DNA of 64,000 nucleotides, taken from the NCBI GenBank assembly GCA_050575255.1, contig JBNZDD010013719.1, forward strand, positions 9,072,866-9,136,865, read 5' to 3'. The translations under genes were made by a program, and so were the position numbers. The notes under the pieces were generated by a model. The model ran no database searches and was not told the DNA's origin. It worked only from the letters and a program-made list of their open reading frames with translations. Numbering within the stretch: the first letter of the stretch is position 1; every line of letters starts with the position of its first letter. Positions 4,884 to 55,187 of this stretch are shown here, one piece after another. This DNA is from Harriotta raleighana (Eukaryota).

Positions 4884-5854
4884 TTTGGGACACTGCCGTG
4901 TGCGATCAGCTGTTGCATTTCGCGCACAAAATACACAGTCAATCCACTTTATAATATATTCTGTGAAGCTCTTTGAGGTGTCTCAAAGACATGATAAGGT
5001 GCTATGTATATTTCTTCAGCTCAATGTCCGGAAAACCGAGGCCCTCCTGATTGGCTCGCGTCAGCGCCTCCGCAACTCGGCAGCATCAGCATCCAAGGCT
5101 GCACTCTCCACCTCGCAAAGCCAGTCAGGAACCTCGGTGTTCTATTTGACCCTGAGCTGTCCTTTCTCCCCCACATCCGCGCCACAACTGGCACTGCCTT
5201 CCACCACCTGCGGAACATCGCCAGGCTACGACACTGCCTCACCCCTCATGCTGCTGAAATACTAGTCCACGCCTTCATCACCTCAAGGCTGGACTATGGG
5301 AACTCTCTCCTNNNNNNNNNNTTTCGAGACCACATCACTCCCACCCTCGCCCGTCTCCACTGGCTCCCCATCCCCCAGAGGATCGAATTCAAGATCCTCA
5401 TCCTCACCTACAAGGCCATTCACGGCCTTGCTCCCTCCTACCTCTCCGACCTACTATCCCCCTATCTACCTGCCCGTACCCTCCGTTCCTCTGGCACTGG
5501 TCTGCTCCACAGCCCTTGCCCTAACCGTCCTACCATCGGCGGCCGGGCTTTCAGCCGCTCAGCCCCCAGACTCTGGAACTCCATCCCCCTGTGCCTTCGC
5601 CTCGCTCCCTCCCTTTCCTCTTTCAAGGCCGGTCTCAAGACCTTTCTCTTCGACCGTGCCTTCAACTCCACTCTCGACTCTCTAGCCCCTCCTTGCTCCT
5701 ACCCTTCCCCCCCTCGCCCTGAACATTTTCCCTTGCTCGGGTCCTGAACCAATCTGTCCAGCGCCTTGGGACGTCCTCCTGACGTGAAACGCGCTCTATA
5801 AGTGTAATTTTGTTGTTGTTGTTGTTGTATATCAAATGCCAGGATTATTATTAT
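4884..5854 (+). mobile_element. Deu-domain-like SINE 3' half (4884-5010 and 5827-5854) split by an L2 insertion
   Basis: The SINE body runs to ...AAGGTGCTATGTATA and resumes after the LINE tail with TATATCAAATGCCAGGATTATTATT. Confidence 0.8.
5011..5826 (+). mobile_element. L2-clade LINE, 5'-truncated (C-terminal ORF2, 3'UTR, (TTG)n tail); contains a 10-N gap at 5312-5321
   Basis: Encodes [14 protein letters not shown]...[38 protein letters not shown]...RLWNSIP, typical of the L2 ORF2 C-terminus. Closely similar to 46783-47675. Confidence 0.92.
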
Positions 5855-5886
5855 CTTTACCTTTGCCAGCTTCAGCCTCCACATAA

Positions 5887-6388
5887 TTTTTGCAAAATAC
5901 TACAGATGCTGGATATCTGAAACAAAAACAGAAGTCGCTGGGAACACTCAACATTTTGGGTTCACGATCCTTTGACAGAACTGGGGCATGTTAGGAGGGA
6001 GAGGCTTTTAAGGACTAACAAAGAGGTGGATTACCACATCATCTGGGTCCCAGACACACCTTTTCTCTCTGGTCTGCCTGTTCTGTTGCAATTTCTTCCT
6101 CCCCATTGTTTTATATTATTAATATCTCCTTTCTCCTGTTTTGTTGCAATCCCTCCCTTTGTTTTGCACCATTAACATTTCTTTAATAGATCATTTCCTG
6201 TCCTATATCCCATTTTCTCCTTTGTCTTCTTTACCCTGCCTCCCCACTCTTTCAGTTCTTAAAAGCCTCTCCCTCATAACATGCCCCAGTTCTAACGAAT
6301 GGTCATAGACCTGAAACATTGATTCACTTTCCTTTCTCCATAGATGCTGCCTGACCTGCTGAGTGTTCCCTGTGACATCTGTATTTGT
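5887..6388. mobile_element. Fold-back Penelope-like (pLTR-type) non-autonomous element with degraded hammerhead motifs
   Basis: The ends are homologous to 52295-52549 and are inverted relative to each other. Degenerate HHR CTAACGAATGGTCATAGACCTGAAAC at ~6293-6318. Flanked by the direct repeat TCCACATAA (5878-5886, 6389-6397). Confidence 0.7.
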
Positions 6389-6904
6389 TCCACATAACTC
6401 TTCTTGTTGTTTGTTTCCTGGTGGACTTTTGTGTCTCTTAAAGGCGCTATATAAATAAAATTTTGATTGGTTTGATTGATTATGTCATTGCAACAAGACC
6501 CACGCCTTCGACCATCCTCCTGCCCTCCAGTCTCCCGGTCCCATCCCCACCACTTGGGTGCAAATTCTTAGCTATCCAGTGCTTTGAGACGTCCTCCAGG
6601 CGTGAAAGATACTGTATGAATATAATTTTTGTGTTTGCATATGTAAACGTGTTTACTACATCTTTGAAACTGGTGACCAGAGCTAAACATATAGTGCACA
6701 TTTGTTCTGACATTTAGAGATTGTGGATACTTGTATTCCATGTTACAACAATGTGTTGCAGCGTTTGGTTTACTTTCTTTTAAATTGTTTTCCTACATTT
6801 TAGTGCTATTGTATCCCATATTTTAGTATATGTATCTGCTGTTGTATGTAATGGTTCTATTGTCACTCCCAGTCCTCTTTGCTTGATCTCAACTTGCAAA
6901 TTCA

Positions 6905-12824: not shown

Positions 12825-14215
12825 ACAACAACAACAAAATTGCACTTATAAACCGCCTTTCACGTGGGGAGGACGTCCCAAAGTGCTGAACAGTCAGGTC
12901 AGGACCCGAGCGGGTGCAGGGGCGTTTGGGTTAGGGGGAAGAGTTAGTGGAGGCGGCCGAAGGCGTGATCGAAGAGGAAGGTCTTGAGACTTGCCTTGAA
13001 GGAGGAAAGGGAGGAAGCAAGGCGGAGGGGCTGTGGGATGGAGTTCCACAATGTGGGAGCAGAGAGGTTGAAAGCCCGGCCACCGAAGGTTGGGCGATTA
13101 GGGCGGTGGACACTGAGCAGGCCTGAGTCTGCTGAACGGAGGGTGCGGGCAGGCTGATAGGGAGACAGCGGATAAGAGAGATAGGCGGGGGCAAGACCAT
13201 TCATGGCCTTGAAGGTGAGAACGAGGATCTGGAATTCGATCTTCTGGGAGATGGGGAGCCAGTGAAGATGGGCGAGGGCAGGAGTTATGTGGTCACGGAG
13301 CCTAGTGCGGGAGAGTATACAAGCTGCAGAATTCTGAATGTTCTGCAGCCTGTGAAGGGAGGAGTTGGGAAGGCCGATGAGGAGAGTTCCCATAGTCAAG
13401 CTTAGATGTGACGAAGGCATGTATAAGTGTTTTGGTGGCGTGAGGTGTGAGGTAGTGACGGAGTCTGGTAATATTGCGGAGGTGGTGGAAAGCTCTACTG
13501 GTCTTGGAGCGGATAAGAGGGAGGAAGGACTGTTCGGGGTCAAACAAGAGCCCAGATTCTTGATTTCGAGAGGTGGAGAGAGCAGCCTTGAATGCTGATA
13601 TTATCAGAGCCTGAGGTGTGGAGGCGCTGACCCGAGCCAATCAGAAGGGCCTCCATGTGGAGCTCCTGTGGCTCAGTGGTAAGAGCACTTGCCTTATATG
13701 CCTTATAAGCATGAGACCTGTGTTCGAATCCAGGCAGATCAGGGCAAAACCTTGGGCAAGTTTCCTTACTCCACATGCCTAATAATAATCCCTCCCAAAA
13801 AAACCGCAATAATAAAATTGGTCATTTCAATCCTTGACTGTTTGTGGGACACTGCTGTGCGCAATTGGCTGCCGCGTTCCGCCCACAAATATACAGTCAA
13901 TTCACAACAGTGTATTCTGTGAAGCGCTTTGGGACGTTGATAAGATGTGAAAAGCGCTATATCAAATGCAAGGATTATTGTTATTATTATTATTATTATT
14001 ATCTTGTTAATGTTGAGATGGAGGAAGTTGGCCCTCGTTCAGGACTCAATGTCGGTCAAACATGCAGTCAGAATGCCAGTAGTCCTGAAGTCGAGGGTGG
14101 ACGCGGAAAGGTGGAGTTGGGTGTCATCCGCATACATGTGGAAATTTACACCATGTCTGCGGATGATGTCGCCTAGGGGGAGCATATAGAGGGTGAAGAG
14201 CAGGGGGCCAAGGAC
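12825..14215 (-). mobile_element. L2-clade LINE, 5'-truncated and degraded, interrupted by a SINE
   Basis: Minus-strand [34 protein letters not shown] (RT YADD motif) and [17 protein letters not shown]...; (CAA)n tail at ~12825. Confidence 0.92.
13657..14002 (+). mobile_element. Young full-length tRNA-derived SINE inserted in an L2
   Basis: GTGGAGCTCCTGTGGCTCAGTGG (A box), GTTCGAATCC (B box), Deu-like TGTGCGCAATTGGCTGCCGCGTT, L2-like 3' stem-loop and a long (ATT)n tail. Confidence 0.93.
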
Positions 14216-17400: not shown

Positions 17401-17570
17401 CTACACCAACCACAAGCCGTGCCACCCTCACATAGCATAGCACAACACAACCACAGGCCTGCCCGTGCTCCCTCCTGTATCACAGAGCGAGGAACCACAC
17501 CGAGAGAGAGAGGAGAGAGATCGCAGCCTCGCTCTGTTCTTGTGCTGGGCTGTTACTCTCTTTTTGCGCC

Positions 17571-19541
17571 ATGTCTTCTGCACAAGTGTCTTCCTCTAGG
17601 AGACAGTCGTGCTACCTCTGTGATCTGCCCCGCATGCCGTGGGCTATGATCTGGGATTTTACCGAGCCCGTGTGCAGGGGATGTGTCAACTACGAAGGTG
17701 CCGATCGCATCGAATTCGTCATCGAGACGGCCCGGCAGTTGAAAAGGGCTCATGGCTTCCAGGATGGGAGATCCCCCGGTCCGCCGCCTGTCAAAGTTCA
17801 GTCTATGGCTGCAGGTAAAGAGACTGCTCAACTCAACCACGTTGACGGCTCGTCCAAACCGTCCCAGACGGTTCTCGACCGCTACTCCCTGGCCACGGAG
17901 AGACCTCGGTTCGAGTACCCAGGCATCACCCACGCTGGTAGGCTTCCCAACGGGTTGAATGGACCCAATGGATTCCCCAAACCCGAGGACATTCCTCCTG
18001 AACTCAACAGACAGAGCCCCAATTCTTCTCGCAGAAATCACGGGCTGGTGCCTCCAGGACCCGTCACTGTCCCTCCTAATTTGTTACCACAGACCACTCT
18101 GAACGGCCCGGTGACGGGAGCCCTCCCCCCGCACAGTCTGCTCGGCCGACCCCCTCCTTCCAACATCCTGGGATCCTCTCTGTCTGTTACCAGCCAGTCG
18201 TTGAGTGATGTAAACAAACGGCCCGGCTCCGTCTCCAGCACCGACCAGGAGAGGGAACTGAAAGAAAAACAACGCAATGCAGAGACCCTAGCGGAACTGA
18301 GCGAAAGTTTAAGGAATCGCTCGGAGGACTGGTCGAACAAACCCAAAATAGTGCGAGAGACTCTGATCACTCTTTCCAACTGCACGCCTTTCGATGTGCG
18401 CTTCAAGAAGGACCATTGTCTACTGGGCAGGGTGTTCGCTTTCGATGCCATTTCCAAGCCGGGCATGGACTACGAATTGAAAATCTACATCGAGTACCCG
18501 AGCGGATCTGCCAACGTGTTTTCCAGCGCCTCGGGGGTGGCCAAACAGATGTACCAGGACTGCATGAAGGACTTCGGCCGGGGGCTATCGTCCGGCTTCA
18601 AGTATTTAGAGTACGAGAAGAAGCACAGCTCGGGGGACTGGCGGCTGCTAGGCGACCTGCTGCCCGAGACGGTGCGTTTCTTCAAGGAGGTGGTAGCGGC
18701 TGAGATGCTGCCTCAGTCTTACATCGACGCCAATTGCCCCATTTTGCCAACCGCCCTGTGTAACCTGTCCCGCGCCTTGCCCAACAACTCCAGGACTGGC
18801 ATGCGCAAGAGGAAAGCCTCGCCGGAGCCCGACCAGGAGGCGGGCGGCGTGAAGCTGGAGGAGCGGCAGCAGCAGTGGCTGGCCGGACAGAACGAAGCCC
18901 TGAAGCTCACCCTGGCTGCGTCGGGCGCCTTTGGGCCGACCATGACCCCCAACCGAACCAGCCCCCCCGAGTCCAGCGGCGGCGGCAGCAGCCAGAACGG
19001 CCAGTCACCTATGGCCGCCCTCATGTCGGTGGCCGACACGCTAGGCAACGCGCACTCGCCAAAGGACAGCAGCGGCGGCAGCAACTCGGTGCATTCGACC
19101 ACCAGCACCAGGAGGAACAGCAACAGCCCCGTGTCACCGGCCTCCGGGGGCGGCCAGCGCCGCATGGCGTCCAGGAACGGGGACGTGGCTCTGTCGGCGG
19201 CGACGTCGGCGGCTCCAAACGCGCACGCCATGGAGGCCGCTCACCCGCCCAACATCCCGGACTCGCCCATGGCCAGTAACGGGCCTTTGTGCTGCACTAT
19301 TTGTCACGAACGTTTGGAGGACACTCACTTCGTGCAGTGCCCGTCGGTGCCCAACCACAAGTTCTGCTTCCCCTGCTCGCGGGAGAGCATCAAGGCCCAA
19401 GGCGCCAACGGCGAGGTTTACTGCCCCAGCGGCGAGAAGTGCCCGCTAGTCGGTTCCAACGTGCCCTGGGCATTCATGCAGGGAGAGATCGCTACCATTT
19501 TAGCAGGGGACGTTAAGGTCAAGAAAGAAAGAGACCCGTAA
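17571..19541 (+). CDS. IRF2BPL: Interferon regulatory factor 2-binding protein-like (EAP1), single-exon, 656 aa; N-terminal C4 zinc finger and C-terminal C3HC4 RING (E3 ligase / transcriptional regulator)
   Basis: The ORF starts [62 protein letters not shown] and ends [35 protein letters not shown]...VKVKKERDP. It has the central block (FDVRFKKDH...YLEYEKKH) and the [12 protein letters not shown]. The N-terminal residues and intronless structure favour IRF2BPL over IRF2BP1/2. Kozak-like context GCGCCATGT. Confidence 0.97.
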
Positions 19542-46100: not shown

Positions 46101-46230
46101 ATTTTAATTCTATAACAATTCAATAACAAGTAGAATGCTGATGTGAATTGCATTTTTTGAAGAATGAAAGCAAGCTGTAAAGTTCAATAAAATGGCGGGT
46201 TATAATTCATAACAGAAATGCACTTTCTGG

Positions 46231-47675
46231 AAAGGTTCTGGAAAGAGTCGTCGCCTCCCAGCTGCGCTCTTTCCTCTCTACCCACTCACTCCTCGAACCC
46301 TTCCAGTCGGGTTTCCATGCTGCCCATAGCACGGAAACTGCCCTGGTCAAGGTCACCAATGACATCCTTACCATCTGTGACCAGGGCTCCCTCTGTCTCC
46401 TCGTCCTCCTTGACCTATCGGCCGCATTCGATACGGTCGACCACTCTATCCTCTTGCACCGCCTGTCCTCCCACCTCAACCTTCAAGGCCCTGTCCTTGA
46501 GTGGTTTACCTCTCCCATCGTTTTCATTTCATACACTCAAATGGCTTTTTCTCCAGCCCCCGCACTGTCTCGTGCGGCGTCCCTCAGGGCTCTGTCCTCG
46601 GTCCTCTCCTCTTCACCCTCTATATGCTCCCCCTTGGTGACATCAACCGCAGACATGGGGTTAACTTCCACATGTATGCGGATGACACCCAACTCTACCT
46701 TTCCTCCTTTATCCTCAACTCCACGACTACGGATGTCCTGACAGCCTGCCTGTCTGACATCGAGTCCTGGACGAGAGACAACTTTCTTCATCTCAATGTC
46801 CGGAAAACCGAGGCCCTCCTGATTGGCTCGCGTCAGCGCCTCCGCAACTCGGGTGCTGACAGCATCAGCATCCAAGGCTGCACTCTCCACCTCGCAAAGC
46901 CAGTCAGGAACCTCGGTGTTCTATTTGACCCTGAGCTGTCCTTTCTCCCCCACATCTGCGCCACAACTGGCACTGCCTTCCACCACCTCCGGAACATCGC
47001 CAGACTGTGACACTACCTCACCCCTCATGCTGCTGAAATACTAGTCCACGCCTTCATCACCTCAAGGCTAGACTATGGGAAATCTCTCCTCGTGGGCCTT
47101 CCCAGCTCCTCCATCCACAAGCTGCAGGTCATCCAGAACTCTGCAGCTCGTGTTCTCTCCCGCACCAGGCTTCGAGACCACATCACTCCCACCCTCGCCC
47201 GTCTCTACTGGCTCCCCATCCCCCAGAGGAATTGAATTCAAGATTCTCATCCTTACCTACAAGGCCATTCACAGCCTTGCTCCCTCCTACCTCTCCGACC
47301 TACTATCCCCCTATCTGCCCGTATTCTCCGTTCCTCTGACTCTGGTCTGCTCCACAGACCCTGTCCTAACCGTCCTACCATTGGCGGCCAGGCTTTCAGC
47401 CGCTCAGCCCCATGGCTCTGGAACTCCATCCCCCAGTGCCTTCATCTCGCTTCCTCCCTTTCCTCTTTCAAGGCTGGTCTCAAGACCTTTCTCTTCGACC
47501 GTGCCTTCAGCTCTCCTCTCGAGTCTCGAGTCTCTACCCCCTCCTTGCTCCCACCCTACCCCCCTCCTCGCCCTGAACATTTTCCCCTGCTCGGGTCTTA
47601 AACCAACTGTCCAGCGCCTTGGGACGTCCTCCTGACGTGAAACGCGCTCTATAAATGTAATTTTGTTGTTGTTGT
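46231..47675 (+). mobile_element. L2-clade LINE, 5'-truncated, covering most of the RT domain; pseudogenised
   Basis: [17 protein letters not shown]...[13 protein letters not shown]...[13 protein letters not shown]...YADDTQLY. Frameshifts near 46510 and 47230, a CGA>TGA stop at 47008-47010, and a (TTG)n tail. Confidence 0.95.
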
Positions 47676-49045: not shown

Positions 49046-52000
49046 TTCAGATATGTATTCATTATTTTGATGGTGGGGGGGTTCTCTATTATTGTAAGAT
49101 TTTAATCAAAGTGATATCTGGACAATGCAGGCAGAAACATAAGTTCAGCTTTTACACAGAATTTTATGGTTAATGCTTTAGGAGTATGTACAGCAAGGGC
49201 AGAATTTATTGTGCCTCTTTGAATTGCAAAATATTCCTTTAACCTTTCCATAAAACCTGAGTTGTTTTTCTTGAAATTAATGAAAGGAATGGGTGGCAAC
49301 CCTGCTTGGCTGGCACTGTGTTGAACCTTTGAAATCTGGGACCATTAATCTATTTTATCCAAAATGCTGCAGTACAGCTCACAGATTCAATGCTTAGGTA
49401 CTGAAGTACAATTGTGCCTGACTTATTTTTTTTCTGCCTAATTTCTCAAATTCTCTGAATTTCCTAGTGTGCGTAGTTTGCTTTATCTTGGCTAGTAAAG
49501 GGGCCAGCTCCCCCTCCCAGCCAATTTCTGTACCAGCTTCTTGAGGTGTTCTTGCGGAGAGCAGAGCAAAATCTGCACCATTTGGATTCCTTCCAATTAA
49601 CAGGCAGTAATACAGAATGGCTTTGTAATGCTGTGTGGAATAAATGTAGCTTCAGCTGCTACAGATTCAACTCCTCACTGATGTTTACTCTTAAAATGTG
49701 GTGATTGATGGAACTTGAATCTATATTGCTGTGTAAGCAGAGTGAGTTCAATATGCTGACCACCGGGACGTCAAGATCTGCAGAGCTGTAGTTGCAATCT
49801 GCAAAGCATGCATAATGGCTTGTACAAATGTGAGGGGTCAGAAGGAACAGCAATTAACGCAACATAACAGAGAAAAGGTTGGGGGTGGGGGGGGAACATG
49901 AGAACCGCCTGAAAGAAATTGAAATGCGAGAATGAATGGAAGATGCATCAAAGCTGGGAAATCAAATGCAAAAATTAAAACTGGGAATAAGAAATCGCTT
50001 GGTAATGATGCACAATAACCGTGTGGGGTCACAGGGGTTTTTCCACAAGGTAAAGTTAAAGCTTTCATAATAATGAACTCAGTGTGTGGTAACCATGAAA
50101 AACAAAGGCACACAAGGAAGTAACTAAAGTTTTAAATTACTGTAGAAAAATTCCAGAAGGATTTTTAATTTAAAAAAATCTCCAAAGAAAAAAAATAACG
50201 ACAGCTAAAATGTGCAAAGGGCGCACAAAATGTTACCATTCTGACTGTAATTTGCAGAAAGCTTCCATATCTGTATCAAAGATCACAGCGCTGATATCAC
50301 TCGCTCCAGTATTTTCAGTTGGCTTATCAGTTTTTTTAAAAACACTTTCCTGATCAATGCTTAAACTTCATTGCAAGGGTAACAATGAGACCAATTCATG
50401 TTTGTTTAAAAGGAAATACACCAGGGCCCAACCATGTTACAAAGGTTTGTTCAGCAATTTGACTTCAGATGTTTTTGAACTCCCTTGATACGCCAACAAA
50501 AAGGAATGCAGGCGCTTTCATTATTTCAGACTTGTTTACATCAAAGGCTGGAAGCCATCTTGGCTTGGGGCGTTACAGACACAATTAGAGCATCAGATTT
50601 ACAGGAGCTGCCAGTTGCATCATGCAGGCTTTAGTGCTTTATCAGGCAGGGATGGGCATTGGCTTCTCCCTTTATCCCCTGCAGCATATGTAATTAAAGT
50701 CAAAGCCCTTCATACTGCTGCTTGTCATTCTAGTGGCTCATGTGGATCCTCTGCCTTTCGAATCGTATCATGTGACCACCTGTGAGACGGCTCACTCGAT
50801 TAATCTTTCATGAGAAGCAGGAGGCAGTAGGATGTGAAGCTGCAAGCTATGACAGGCAAAGAATTAGAATGACTGAAGGCAAGGTCAGAAATGGGCCAAT
50901 TCATTGTCCGCATTCAGGCTCACAACCACTTGCGTGGGGAAAGAGCGAGAGAGAGCGAGAAAGATTTGTATAAAAGAATTTCTTCATTCAGACCGAATCA
51001 AAATCTGCTGAATCATCATTATCTGACAAATTAGTCAACCGGATGGGGATGACCTGTGCTCTAGTAATTAAAGCTTATGATCTGCATTATACACATCTGG
51101 TTAGAGAAAGGAAATTACATGCTCTTGTCTTTACATACAGCAGCTATTTGTGTTTCCAAGGGCACATCAACACTGTTTACACTTGCACTGCCATTATTTG
51201 TTGTTGAATTTTTCTGGAAAACAATGCTGACCCCATTTCCTCTCGGTAGATGTATTATGCAAATGTGCAAATGAATCCTCACAAGGGTACCATTGTTCTT
51301 TATTGTGTGGTTTCAGGTTAGCTTGTGGGAAAGAATGTTCTACCTTGACTGGGGTAAAACCATCTACTAGAGAAACCTCAGTGGTAGCTCAGGGCGAGGG
51401 AGATTCTTTCATGTGAGTCATCCCCGAGGATTAACAATAAAGCCCCTCCCAGGAAGCCAAATGTGTCAAAAGCCTGTTTACATGCTTAGGGAGCACAAAG
51501 CTCCATTAAGGTGGATTTACAAAGTTTTTTCAGTATCTGAAGGCAAAGAATTGGTCCATGGATACAATGGTTAGGGCCCCAGATATGAATTTGCAATGCA
51601 ATCCAAGGTCCCAGTTTGTGGTACAACTCATTTGGCTCAGTGACTGGGGAATGCCCTGCTCACTACAAAACAAATCTAAAGGTCACCTTGAGTTTTAGTG
51701 GAAGGAAATTACGAAGCAGCTATATTTTGAGTGTTTGGTTTGTTTTATCTCCCCCACCACCCAAGAAAAATGCAAAGAAAACATAGTGCGGTTACGAAAA
51801 TCAAATAAGGGCTGATGTTGTTCCGTTGTGAACTCAGTCTCCCGCAATGCCTGAGCTGATGCTTGCTTTAAACAGGAATGGTTTCACTTGTCGTTGGGTG
51901 GATTTGGTTGTGGGCAGGTGTTCAACTGTATTCCGCTTGTGCTATGAATAGGCCAGGCAAAATGCCCTTGGTGGAAATGCACATAGTATTTCCATTTGGG

Positions 52001-52294
52001 TGTTGCCTTGCACTGCTGTTCTCCCCTGACAATACTGCACACTTGTCACTACATGTACTGAGTTATGCTGCAGTCCACTCCTGTCTCTTCAGGTGGAAAA
52101 ACTCCTAGGTGGAAAAGGGCAAGGGATTTGGGATTAGAGCAAGTAATTCCAGCAGAGGATACAGCCTCAGCCAAACAACTTCCTTCTGTAATTTCTATGA
52201 TTCTGTAGTTGAGGTTGAAGAGGTTCTATATTCACCGTCTCTTCTTTCTTGACATCAGCACTTTACTACACAGTAATAATCTCAGGTGGTGCTT

Positions 52295-52549
52295 ACTAAA
52301 ACAAAACACAAAATACTACAGATGCTGGGAATCTGAAACAAACACAGAAGTTACTGGGGAAACTCAGAAGGTCAGGCAGCATACATGGAGAAAGGAAAGT
52401 AAGTCAATCTTTCGGGTCCACGACCATTCGTCAGAACAGTCAGAACAGAACTTCTGATGAAGGGTCGTGGGCCCGAAACGTTGACTCACTTTTCTTTCTC
52501 CATGGATGTTGCCTGACCTGCTGAATTTCCCTAGTAAGTTCCGTGTTTT
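52295..52549. mobile_element. Fold-back Penelope-like non-autonomous element with a hammerhead motif in each arm
   Basis: The arms ~52335-52437 and ~52452-52549 are imperfect reverse complements. Flanked by TGGTGCTT (52287-52294, 52550-52557). Confidence 0.75.
52454..52485 (+). ncRNA. Minimal type I hammerhead ribozyme motif
   Basis: CTGATGA-A-GGGTC(GTG)GGCCC-GAAAC-GTT: both conserved core boxes, a 5-bp stem II and a palindromic AACGTT in place of stem III, as in minimal PLE-associated HHRs. Confidence 0.65.
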
Positions 52550-52835
52550 TGGTGCTTTGTTACTTCCTAGTCCCAGAGATTGCTACATATCCTTTTTTGA
52601 GCAACTTCTGTTCTTCCCATTATTTATTTAGGTTTCTCGGTAAAGGATGATCTAATCTCCTTAGCTAGGGATTTGGAACCAAGCTGGTAGTTGGGATCAG
52701 GAGGGGTGGAGGGGCGGGTGGCATAAGGAGGGTGATCTAAGGCATGGTTAAAGAGTATATTTTAAATTTAATATTTATATTTACGATAATACAAAATTAC
52801 ATTTGTATAGTGCCTTTGATGGTGGGAGAACATTC

Positions 52836-54920
52836 CAAGGTGCCAATATAAAATATTACAGGACTTTGGAGAGTGGGAATAGACGAGTTAGCTCTTGTGG
52901 GGAATAATGGCAGGTGGTCTGAATGCCTTGTTTCTGTATTGTAATCTTCTGCTACAAAGACAGATTCATTATTAAAGGTCTTTGGACCTTTAATACTTTT
53001 TTTTAATTTTAGATATGTTGTCCACATGTTTCTGCTTGTATTTCATGAATCATCAACGGAGCATAGGCCATTGCTCGCTGTGTTCCTGAACTCTTCTGAC
53101 CTCCTTTCATTTGTCACACGCAAAAAAAAGAGTTTTTATGAAGCACTGGACTTCAAAGCAACCCGACTGGTCAGTAAAACAAGTTTAAAACCACCAGAAA
53201 TAGTTATCAACATGAACCATTGAACTTTTGTTTATAACTTTTGACTGTGAGTGGAAGAGGTGAAGAACAGTTCAGAACATTAACGTTTTTAGATCTCAGC
53301 TCATTTCCCAGTAGTCAGACTAGTTGGTATGTCACAACGTTTTACCTGGAGTACCACAAAAACAAACACAAAGCAAATCGTTCCATTAAGTTCACCATGT
53401 GTGAAAGGAAATGCTTAGCACAGTACAATGACAGATCATTATTGAAAGCAGAGTACAGTACACCATAAATTGTATTTATGCAGCAACGTTCAGTTGGAAG
53501 GACATTACCAAGTGTTGGACAATCGAGGCTGTTGTACCCGAGCCAGGGTTGGAATTTGAGAGGTGTGGTGATAAACAGGGTGGGGGTGGTAAGATGACCA
53601 AAGGAAGCTCTTGAAATGAGGGAAGGCATGTGGGGAAAGGCATGAGGCAAAGGGCCTGTGGGATAGAGTTTGAGAGTGGGAACAACAAGGCTGACACCCA
53701 ACAGCATGGGAGTGGTTGGGAACTGCCACCGATGCCAAATAGTTGAGAGAGGAGAGCAAGTGTGGGAATAGTGCCAGCCCGGACAAGTTACAGGAGACTG
53801 CAATGTACCGGAAATTCTTTTGTTTTATTGGTTAGGGAAAGAGGCCTCAGAGAGTCCCTCCCATTCATTCATGGTCANCAAGGTGCCAATATAAAATATT
53901 ACAGGACTTTGGAGAGTGGGAATAGACGAGTTAGCTCTTGTGGGGAATAATGGCAGGTGGTCTGAATGCCTTGTTTCTGTATTGTAATCTTCTGCTACAA
54001 AGACAGATTCATTATTAAAGGTCTTTGGACCTTTAATACTTTTTTTTAATTTTAGATATGTTGTCCACATGTTTCTGCTTGTATTTCATGAATCATCAAC
54101 GGAGCATAGGCCATTGCTCGCTGTGTTCCTGAACTCTTCTGACCTCCTTTCATTTGTCACACGCAAAAAAAAGAGTTTTTATGAAGCACTGGACTTCAAA
54201 GCAACCCGACTGGTCAGTAAAACAAGTTTAAAACCACCAGAAATAGTTATCAACATGAACCATTGAACTTTTGTTTATAACTTTTGACTGTGAGTGGAAG
54301 AGGTGAAGAACAGTTCAGAACATTAACGTTTTTAGATCTCAGCTCATTTCCCAGTAGTCAGACTAGTTGGTATGTCACAACGTTTTACCTGGAGTACCAC
54401 AAAAACAAACACAAAGCAAATCGTTCCATTAAGTTCACCATGTGTGAAAGGAAATGCTTAGCACAGTACAATGACAGATCATTATTGAAAGCAGAGTACA
54501 GTACACCATAAATTGTATTTATGCAGCAACGTTCAGTTGGAAGGACATTACCAAGTGTTGGACAATCGAGGCTGTTGTACCCGAGCCAGGGTTGGAATTT
54601 GAGAGGTGTGGTGATAAACAGGGTGGGGGTGGTAAGATGACCAAAGGAAGCTCTTGAAATGAGGGAAGGCATGTGGGGAAAGGCATGAGGCAAAGGGCCT
54701 GTGGGATAGAGTTTGAGAGTGGGAACAACAAGGCTGACACCCAACAGCATGGGAGTGGTTGGGAACTGCCACCGATGCCAAATAGTTGAGAGAGGAGAGC
54801 AAGTGTGGGAATAGTGCCAGCCCGGACAAGTTACAGGAGACTGCAATGTACCGGAAATTCTTTTGTTTTATTGGTTAGGGAAAGAGGCCTCAGAGAGTCC
54901 CTCCCATTCATTCATGGTCA
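52836..54920. repeat. Apparently exact 1042 bp tandem duplication (52836-53877 / 53879-54920) separated by one N; probable assembly artefact
   Basis: The ORF translations are identical with a 1043 bp offset, and the junction is exactly the N at 53878. Confidence 0.95.
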
Positions 54921-55187
54921 TCCCCAACCCCATCATTGGCGGGAGAGCCTTCAGCCACTCTGCCCCCAAACTTTGTAATTCCAATCCTCAATACCTCCAC
55001 CTCGCTCCCTCCATAGCCTCCAAGTTCCTCCTCTTCAACCATGCCATCAGTCACCCCCTTTCCTCCTCTTTTCACTCTATCTTCCCTGATCCCAACCCTA
55101 GCTTGTGTCCAGAACACTGATTGCTCAGTGCCTTGGGACATGCTCCCGATGTGAAAGGCGCTATACAAATATTTTGTTGTTGTTGTT
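54920..55187 (+). mobile_element. L2 3' fragment with (TTG)n tail
   Basis: IIGGRAFSHSAPKL followed by the L2 3' stem-loop. Confidence 0.85.

Follow-up and report, generated by a model that had tools for sequence, protein, structure and literature searches.

A fold-back hairpin with two hammerhead motifs in Harriotta raleighana is the stub of an endonuclease-bearing Penelope-like element

The locus described here lies in a window of 64,000 nucleotides from the genome of Harriotta raleighana (NCBI GenBank assembly GCA_050575255.1, contig JBNZDD010013719.1, positions 9,072,866 to 9,136,865 of the forward strand). The plus strand of the window holds an intronless stop-to-stop frame of 701 amino acids (17436-19541), which we take to be IRF2BP-like (vertebrate), and fragments at 4998-5747, 12944-13640 and 46181-47635 presumably belong to L2/CR1-type LINE reverse transcriptases (RTs). 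A fold-back element is found 33 kb downstream of the 701-aa frame. Beyond it, two copies of 1042 bp (52836-53877 and 53879-54920), 100% identical and separated by a single N, likely represent an assembly overlap and not a real duplication.

We identify the fold-back as the stub of a Penelope-like element (PLE) of the H. raleighana genome that bears an endonuclease. It is bounded by an 8-bp target-site duplication (TSD), TGGTGCTT, with its left and right copies on the plus strand at 52287-52294 and 52550-52557. Numbering the PLE terminal unit from the C of CUGA as 0, and comparing with the family majority, we read, after 4 unassigned bases at 52295-52298, an inverted arm on the minus strand at 52299-52437 (unit -3 to about +136, 8 differences in 138 nt), a junction filler of 14 nt, AGTCAGAACAGAAC, at 52438-52451, which derives from the arm's own terminal bases and is unique in the genome, and a forward arm on the plus strand at 52452-52549 (-2 to +96, 8 differences in 99 nt). 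Both arms differ from this majority by 6-8%. The left arm exceeds the right by about 40 nt through a one-sided tail of about 36 nt (approximately 52299-52336) that the forward arm lacks. The hairpin of about 100 bp and the flanking repeat described in the initial annotation are both present, the arms at 52340-52436 and 52452-52548 spanning 97 nt with 86% complementarity, and the retroelement insertion that it proposed is supported. RNA folding gives the element -148.4 kcal/mol (z = -19; 0/200 shuffles as good). A second, longer head-to-head insertion of the same PLE family occupies 5878-6397 of the window, with a tailed inverted arm from 5893, an untailed forward arm to about 6388 and a 9-bp TSD, TCCACATAA, at 5878-5886 and 6389-6397. 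The window element itself is dead and ordinary.

Both of the opposite-strand hammerhead motifs noted earlier are real, CTGATGA-A-GGGTC-GTG-GGCCC-GAAA-CGTT on the plus strand (52454-52482) and CTGACGA-A-TGGTC-GTG-GACCC-GAAA-GATT on the minus strand (52434-52406), but they are one sequence in two inverted copies rather than independent features. Neither is intact. The plus core keeps its catalytic boxes and the ACGU palindrome, with a predicted cut after 52482, and has a stem I of only 2 bp through truncation of the forward arm; the minus core has lost the palindrome (GAAAGAUU for GAAACGUU) and one pair of stem II. The family majority keeps the core boxes and stem II, and with its stem I of AGUU/GACU, bulged A, 5-bp stem II and ACGU palindrome it agrees with the minimal type I hammerhead of Penelope type that had been suggested, whereas the suggested search with hammerhead models (Rfam, window 50000-55000) found no hammerhead family at E up to 10. 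For the 139-nt unit, the predicted fold of the family-majority hammerhead comes within 2.6 kcal/mol of the minimum. In the window element, forcing the hammerhead fold against the hairpin would cost 47 (plus) or 39 (minus) kcal/mol by the same kind of modelling, and the ribozymes of the window are damaged and, on these energies, predicted to be trapped in the hairpin. Each transcript would hold a single sense ribozyme and therefore no cis dimer. Across the family the CpG sites of the core have decayed by 16%, against 21% at other CpG sites, and the non-CpG A, C and G of the core mutate slightly less than the rest, a comparison in which many loci were picked by the hammerhead pattern itself. The family resembles the minimal hammerheads of metazoan PLEs, as defined in the accessible text of PMC4209133, in its short stem I, the bulged base before stem II, G10.1-C11.1 and the palindromic 15.2-16.2. 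The same text mentions dual minimal hammerheads on opposite strands 100-700 bp apart; here, in contrast, the cores are about 20 bp apart and stem II has 5 bp.

A DNA search of the animal's own genome, in which 40 of 5401 candidates were scored, matched both strands in 40/40 cases. The genome-wide copy count that the initial annotation recommended returned 657 occurrences of the exact hammerhead 26-mer; an exact 20-mer downstream of the hammerhead occurs 3562 times and the exact tight head-to-head pattern at 19 loci (reversed patterns, used as controls, gave 0 matches). Upstream of the terminal unit, a GIY-YIG-type frame (YIGETKR..RFAEH) is seen in loci L031, L043 and L045, and an RT frame in L045 and L103, with a CHCRRCNTC linker between RT and GIY-YIG. 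The Pfam matches lie below the curated cut-offs, at E 0.002-0.016 for RVT_1 in 3/9 fragments and E 3e-4 for GIY-YIG in 1/9; DKG, YIGE and CCHH-type motifs are visible in the translations, and a PDB sequence search with the RT fragment gave nothing useful. A protein search of the genome produced 150 matches among 227 candidates, and most of the 20 long loci fetched end at the PLE terminal unit. The ORFs examined are all broken. The terminal unit also directly precedes the N-terminus of the ORF, as expected of a pseudo-LTR (pLTR). L103, a 3.7-kb copy with a TSD (read by eye), combines an inverted tailed arm with a forward untailed arm carrying RT and endonuclease remnants. In the text available from PMC8557442 the CX2-5CxxC linker is assigned to Neptune and Nematis, and the CX4CxxC linker of this family, judged from the motif in L045 and L103, would make it Neptune/Nematis type.

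The 3' ends of the arms are bimodal, 38 of 83 being tailed and 34 lying at +84 to +108, with 11 elsewhere. Pairs chosen by their likeness to the window element, a biased choice, join a tailed and an untailed arm in 30/30 cases. Loci not chosen on tails gave 24 mixed pairs out of 33, with 1 untailed pair, 0 doubly tailed and 8 unclassifiable, meaning that an arm fitted neither class (pairs with fillers above 100 nt and duplicate flanks were dropped from this count), and 40 further loci gave 11 mixed pairs out of 15, none of like with like and 4 unclassifiable. Combined, 35/36 classifiable head-to-head pairs not selected on tails consist of one tailed and one untailed arm. TSDs of at least 8 bp flank 39/63 head-to-head pairs, compared with 1/400 controls with mismatched flanks. 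Over 54 pairs, 51 non-majority, non-CpG bases are common to both arms, where 2000 permutations give 12.4 +/- 3.2 (maximum 24); this excess implies that both arms come from one source, and it fits one RNA, two RNAs of one source locus or gene conversion between the arms equally well. All 36 tight junctions are distinct (36/36), and that of the window was found a single time genome-wide when up to 1 mismatch was allowed. Arm lengths vary continuously, reaching kilobases in copies with RT and GIY-YIG remnants. The fillers are partly templated from the first 41 nt of the element, 9/25 having a match of at least 6 nt (against a null mean of 2.2 and a maximum of 7). As their main source, telomerase-like repetition of the 5' end was rejected: one such repeat has 12 matches in the genome, set against about 1059 copies that end at -3, more than the 1-2 expected (an estimate) yet rare. 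At L042:1015-1537 a 6-base palindromic junction (GTCAGCTGTTC context) occurs at two nearby places, possibly by local duplication.

The stub is two short head-to-head copies of the PLE terminal unit, which we consider were probably made in one insertion event from two cDNAs primed on capped RNA. Alternatively, one cDNA might snap back, or an antisense RNA prime itself, into the second arm, which the endonuclease would then trim at the tail boundary. Such snap-back or self-priming is proposed for head-to-head PLE structures in the portion of PMC3846280 at hand, and the tail is ascribed to endonuclease resolution in that of PMC8557442; it would explain both the strict pairing of tail with no tail and the shared variants, and the near-palindrome TCAG-TT-CTGA, the common TC before AGTT and a few junctions that read GTCAGAACTGACG (L072) also speak for it. 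We nevertheless hold it unlikely. In some pairs one arm, in some the other, extends further 5' and holds sequence that its partner lacks (L038, L079, L257 and L265 as against L044, L052, L053 and L270), the untailed arm being the longer by tens to hundreds of bases in certain pairs, so neither arm was copied from the other. Moreover, both arms reach -2 or further in 17/36 tight junctions, both ends carry additions of their own in L074 and L021, the junctions all differ, and an extra G is found on the sense 5' end.

The 5' ends were mapped on the first 100 listed of the 3562 matches to the 20-mer, which lie on small contigs; 93 arms were mapped, of which 84 were kept after 3 at locus edges and 6 duplicates had been dropped. 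Some 42% (35/84) end within the 11 nt from -7 to +3, or 3.2 per nt, while 3/84 end at -60 to -8 (0.06 per nt), 12/84 further upstream and 34/84 between +4 and +43. Copies that hold the ORF start often begin at the same stop (L214, L219, L225, L229, L230), and others begin further up. The upstream consensus carries TTAAAA at -33 to -28 and CCAGTTC around A(-4), which may be read as TATA-like and initiator-like respectively. Motifs of these two kinds are described for other pLTRs in PMC2377424 and in the available sections of PMC3846280. The stop falls at -3 in more copies (1059) than at -4 (755), and in 623 copies C(-5) is preceded at -6 by a base other than C, mostly T, so the start is either dispersed or trimmed. 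Copies beginning TC-AGTT lack upstream homology (T in 63 of the first 100 listed of the 623); they may reflect either a second start at C(-5) with one base added or a cDNA end extended briefly on a template. Cleaved RNA was discarded as the template, there being no excess of 5' ends at +26 to +32: among the 84 genomic arms the predicted cut site has 1.0 ends per nt and its surroundings 1.05.

The pile-up of 5' ends could instead mark a 3' splice site (CCCCAG/TT), or a stall of the RT at the hammerhead, rather than a transcript start. A pyrimidine run and CAG do lie just upstream, the intron of D. virilis Penelope ends at helix I (PMC4209133, in the text accessible), and the mode is at -3 and not at -4. 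We find this improbable, for among 98 truncated arms no second consensus that might represent exon 1 can be made out 5' of -2, evidence against splicing of a first exon, and matches run on through the G, A and C of the would-be intron; nor would a stall account both for an end density that falls 20-fold past -7 and for a G at one specific position.

That G precedes A(-4). Where the base there is non-templated, it is G in 393 copies and A or T in 362 genome-wide (393/755), where about 25% G is expected at 40% G+C. One base up, at -6, G is found by eye in 10 of the first 100 listed of 623 copies, and at position -4, before the -3 starts, in 29 of the first 100 listed of 1059, which matches background. 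The fetched loci have G in 13/20 (p = 7e-4, uncorrected for the 5 positions tested). Among copies that continue upstream, 42/43 have C at -5 and none has G; of 20 more G copies, sampled at intervals along the first 100 listed, 19 are without the upstream promoter region, so the G is not a subfamily variant. The pattern suggests what a copied cap would give; an extra 5' G in SVA and L1 is read as a reverse-transcribed cap in the part of PMC2912911 available. The C(-5) class shows no cap-like G. T follows the extra G in 13/20, so bases are often added without a template, and the G may be no more than such a terminal addition; where copies stand head-to-head, its source can also be the other arm (L267, L270). 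No cap signature in PLEs was found in the main text of the open-access papers searched.

The initial annotation saw in the hairpin a non-autonomous fold-back retroelement bearing ribozymes, which would move as a unit and whose antisense arm would regulate cleavage or supply dsRNA; at least 40 near full-length look-alikes, the 19 loci matching the exact tight-junction pattern and a composite fold-back of about 550 nt at two loci with different flanks (L120 and L121, 80% identical) speak for it, yet we judge it highly improbable, given that the window junction is unique and no two tight junctions agree, that arm lengths run on to copies with RT and GIY-YIG, that the hairpin is predicted to be so much more stable than either hammerhead and the minus motif is damaged, that the core CpG sites have decayed nearly as the others have, and that the layout and the opposite-strand dual hammerheads are in print (passages of PMC8557442, PMC3846280 and PMC4209133). 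Among the 36 tight junctions, the same internal junction in different flanks, as in MITE- or SINE-like elements, was not found. The composites, with two fold-backs and a CT-rich spacer (L120:733-1227 and L121:322-869, G000 C13128; related are L104, L106 and L084), may have arisen when a fold-back was transcribed anew and inserted again, and come nearest to a non-autonomous element; a genome pattern search for a derivative of them gave no match.

Returning to two cDNAs primed on capped RNA, the element's protein would nick both target strands and each would prime a cDNA on its capped RNA, with starts at the tail site (about +134) for one and some 36 nt upstream (about +98) for the other. Because the terminal unit, directly before the ORF, also forms the 5' end of the transcript, internal priming on this 5' copy would yield run-off cDNAs of about 100-140 nt ending at the transcript start, which we place at the A four bases before the hammerhead core, presumably within TTAAAA (-33 to -28)...CCAGTTC. 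The free cDNA ends may then be joined through microhomology and short templated fillers, by host end-joining or RT jumps. The hammerhead would be a passenger copied from uncleaved RNA, and the hairpin a by-product. A PLE protein studied in vitro nicks both strands and extends them, its RT starting internally at two sites that bound the tail; it is a predicted dimer and uses uncleaved RNA (PMC11167929). More broadly, we see about an even chance that PLE integration is obligate double priming, in which a protein dimer nicks both strands and copies one capped RNA twice, with one subunit for each side of the tail, internal priming on the 5' copy of the unit giving strong-stop-like run-off cDNAs that include the cap. 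If so, a single reaction would yield the head-to-head stubs, the solo copies of 140 nt and, by a jump after run-off, the partial tandems, and thousands of fossil copies would locate the promoter, both start sites and the stagger of the nicks at single-base resolution and would show that the hammerhead was uncleaved in the copied RNA.

The layout itself is already known for PLEs, and what is new here is the counted pairing of tail with no tail, the 5' stop and the cap-like G. The Fig. 2 legend of PMC8557442 depicts the insertion unit of endonuclease-bearing (EN+) PLEs as a pLTR with an adjacent inverted 5'-truncated copy, a one-sided tail of 30-40 bp and a TSD; Pen2a_Av is an example of this layout in PMC3846280, and inverted pLTRs are listed as a known peculiarity in PMC8969392, as far as the accessible parts of these papers go. 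The present family has the head-to-head arms, a 30-40-bp tail on one arm only, a TSD of variable length (8-15 bp, as in the published insertions), the hammerhead in the terminal unit, the TATA-like and Inr-like pLTR motifs, an RT-GIY-YIG ORF ending at the terminal unit and the unit again before the ORF start. It differs from the published description in three respects: the ORF is absent from the window stub, where both arms stop at the start of the unit; the pairing is counted (35/36), the tail being given as 'often' on one end in the text seen of PMC8557442 and PMC3846280; and a position-specific extra G is found.

PAc, the Poseidon of Anolis studied in PMC11167929, likewise has two RT starts bounding the tail, internal priming near the ORF start, nicking and extension of both strands, and use of uncleaved RNA. 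PAc belongs to Penelope/Poseidon, whereas the linker here suggests Neptune/Nematis; it showed no strand bias between the two start sites, and joining of the second end was not studied, so the strict pairing here goes beyond that report. In L1 twin priming, too, two target ends prime on one RNA, the cDNAs are joined and an extra 5' G is read as a reverse-transcribed cap; there, to judge from the available text of PMC2912911, the second priming takes place deep within the RNA and leaves non-overlapping pieces inverted, whereas starts 36 nt apart would here give an inverted duplication. Non-LTR retrozymes (bioRxiv 10.64898/2026.07.22.740005, in its accessible portion) are similarly non-coding and PLE-derived with a type I hammerhead, but are head-to-tail tandem repeats; the present copies are head-to-head with one sense ribozyme per strand, and no tandem array of units with sense hammerheads lies at the element's locus.

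How the inverted and tandem ends of PLEs form is called unresolved in PMC11167929 and in the sections available of PMC8557442. The counted pairing and the cap-like G make this open integration mechanism testable, and the family offers counted predictions for the existing in vitro system: mixed pairs, a capped start at A(-4), copying of the cap and no cleaved RNA. Hairpins of this kind can also be misfiled as MITEs or as new ribozyme elements.

Two further observations concern the terminal unit. Partial tandems in L214-L241 consist of the unit (-4 to +134), 150-620 nt of the ORF start and the unit again, in a set whose query favoured pieces of such size; several of their joints lie near ORF position 263 at a common CCCAG, and they look like template jumps after run-off. 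Lastly, although no spliced copy came to light, unit positions +58 to +102 (52512-52549 and 52333-52376 in the window) resemble the 3' end of an intron, with a branch-point-like CTGAC, a U-rich run and TTTCAG, and the untailed start site falls inside that U-rich run.
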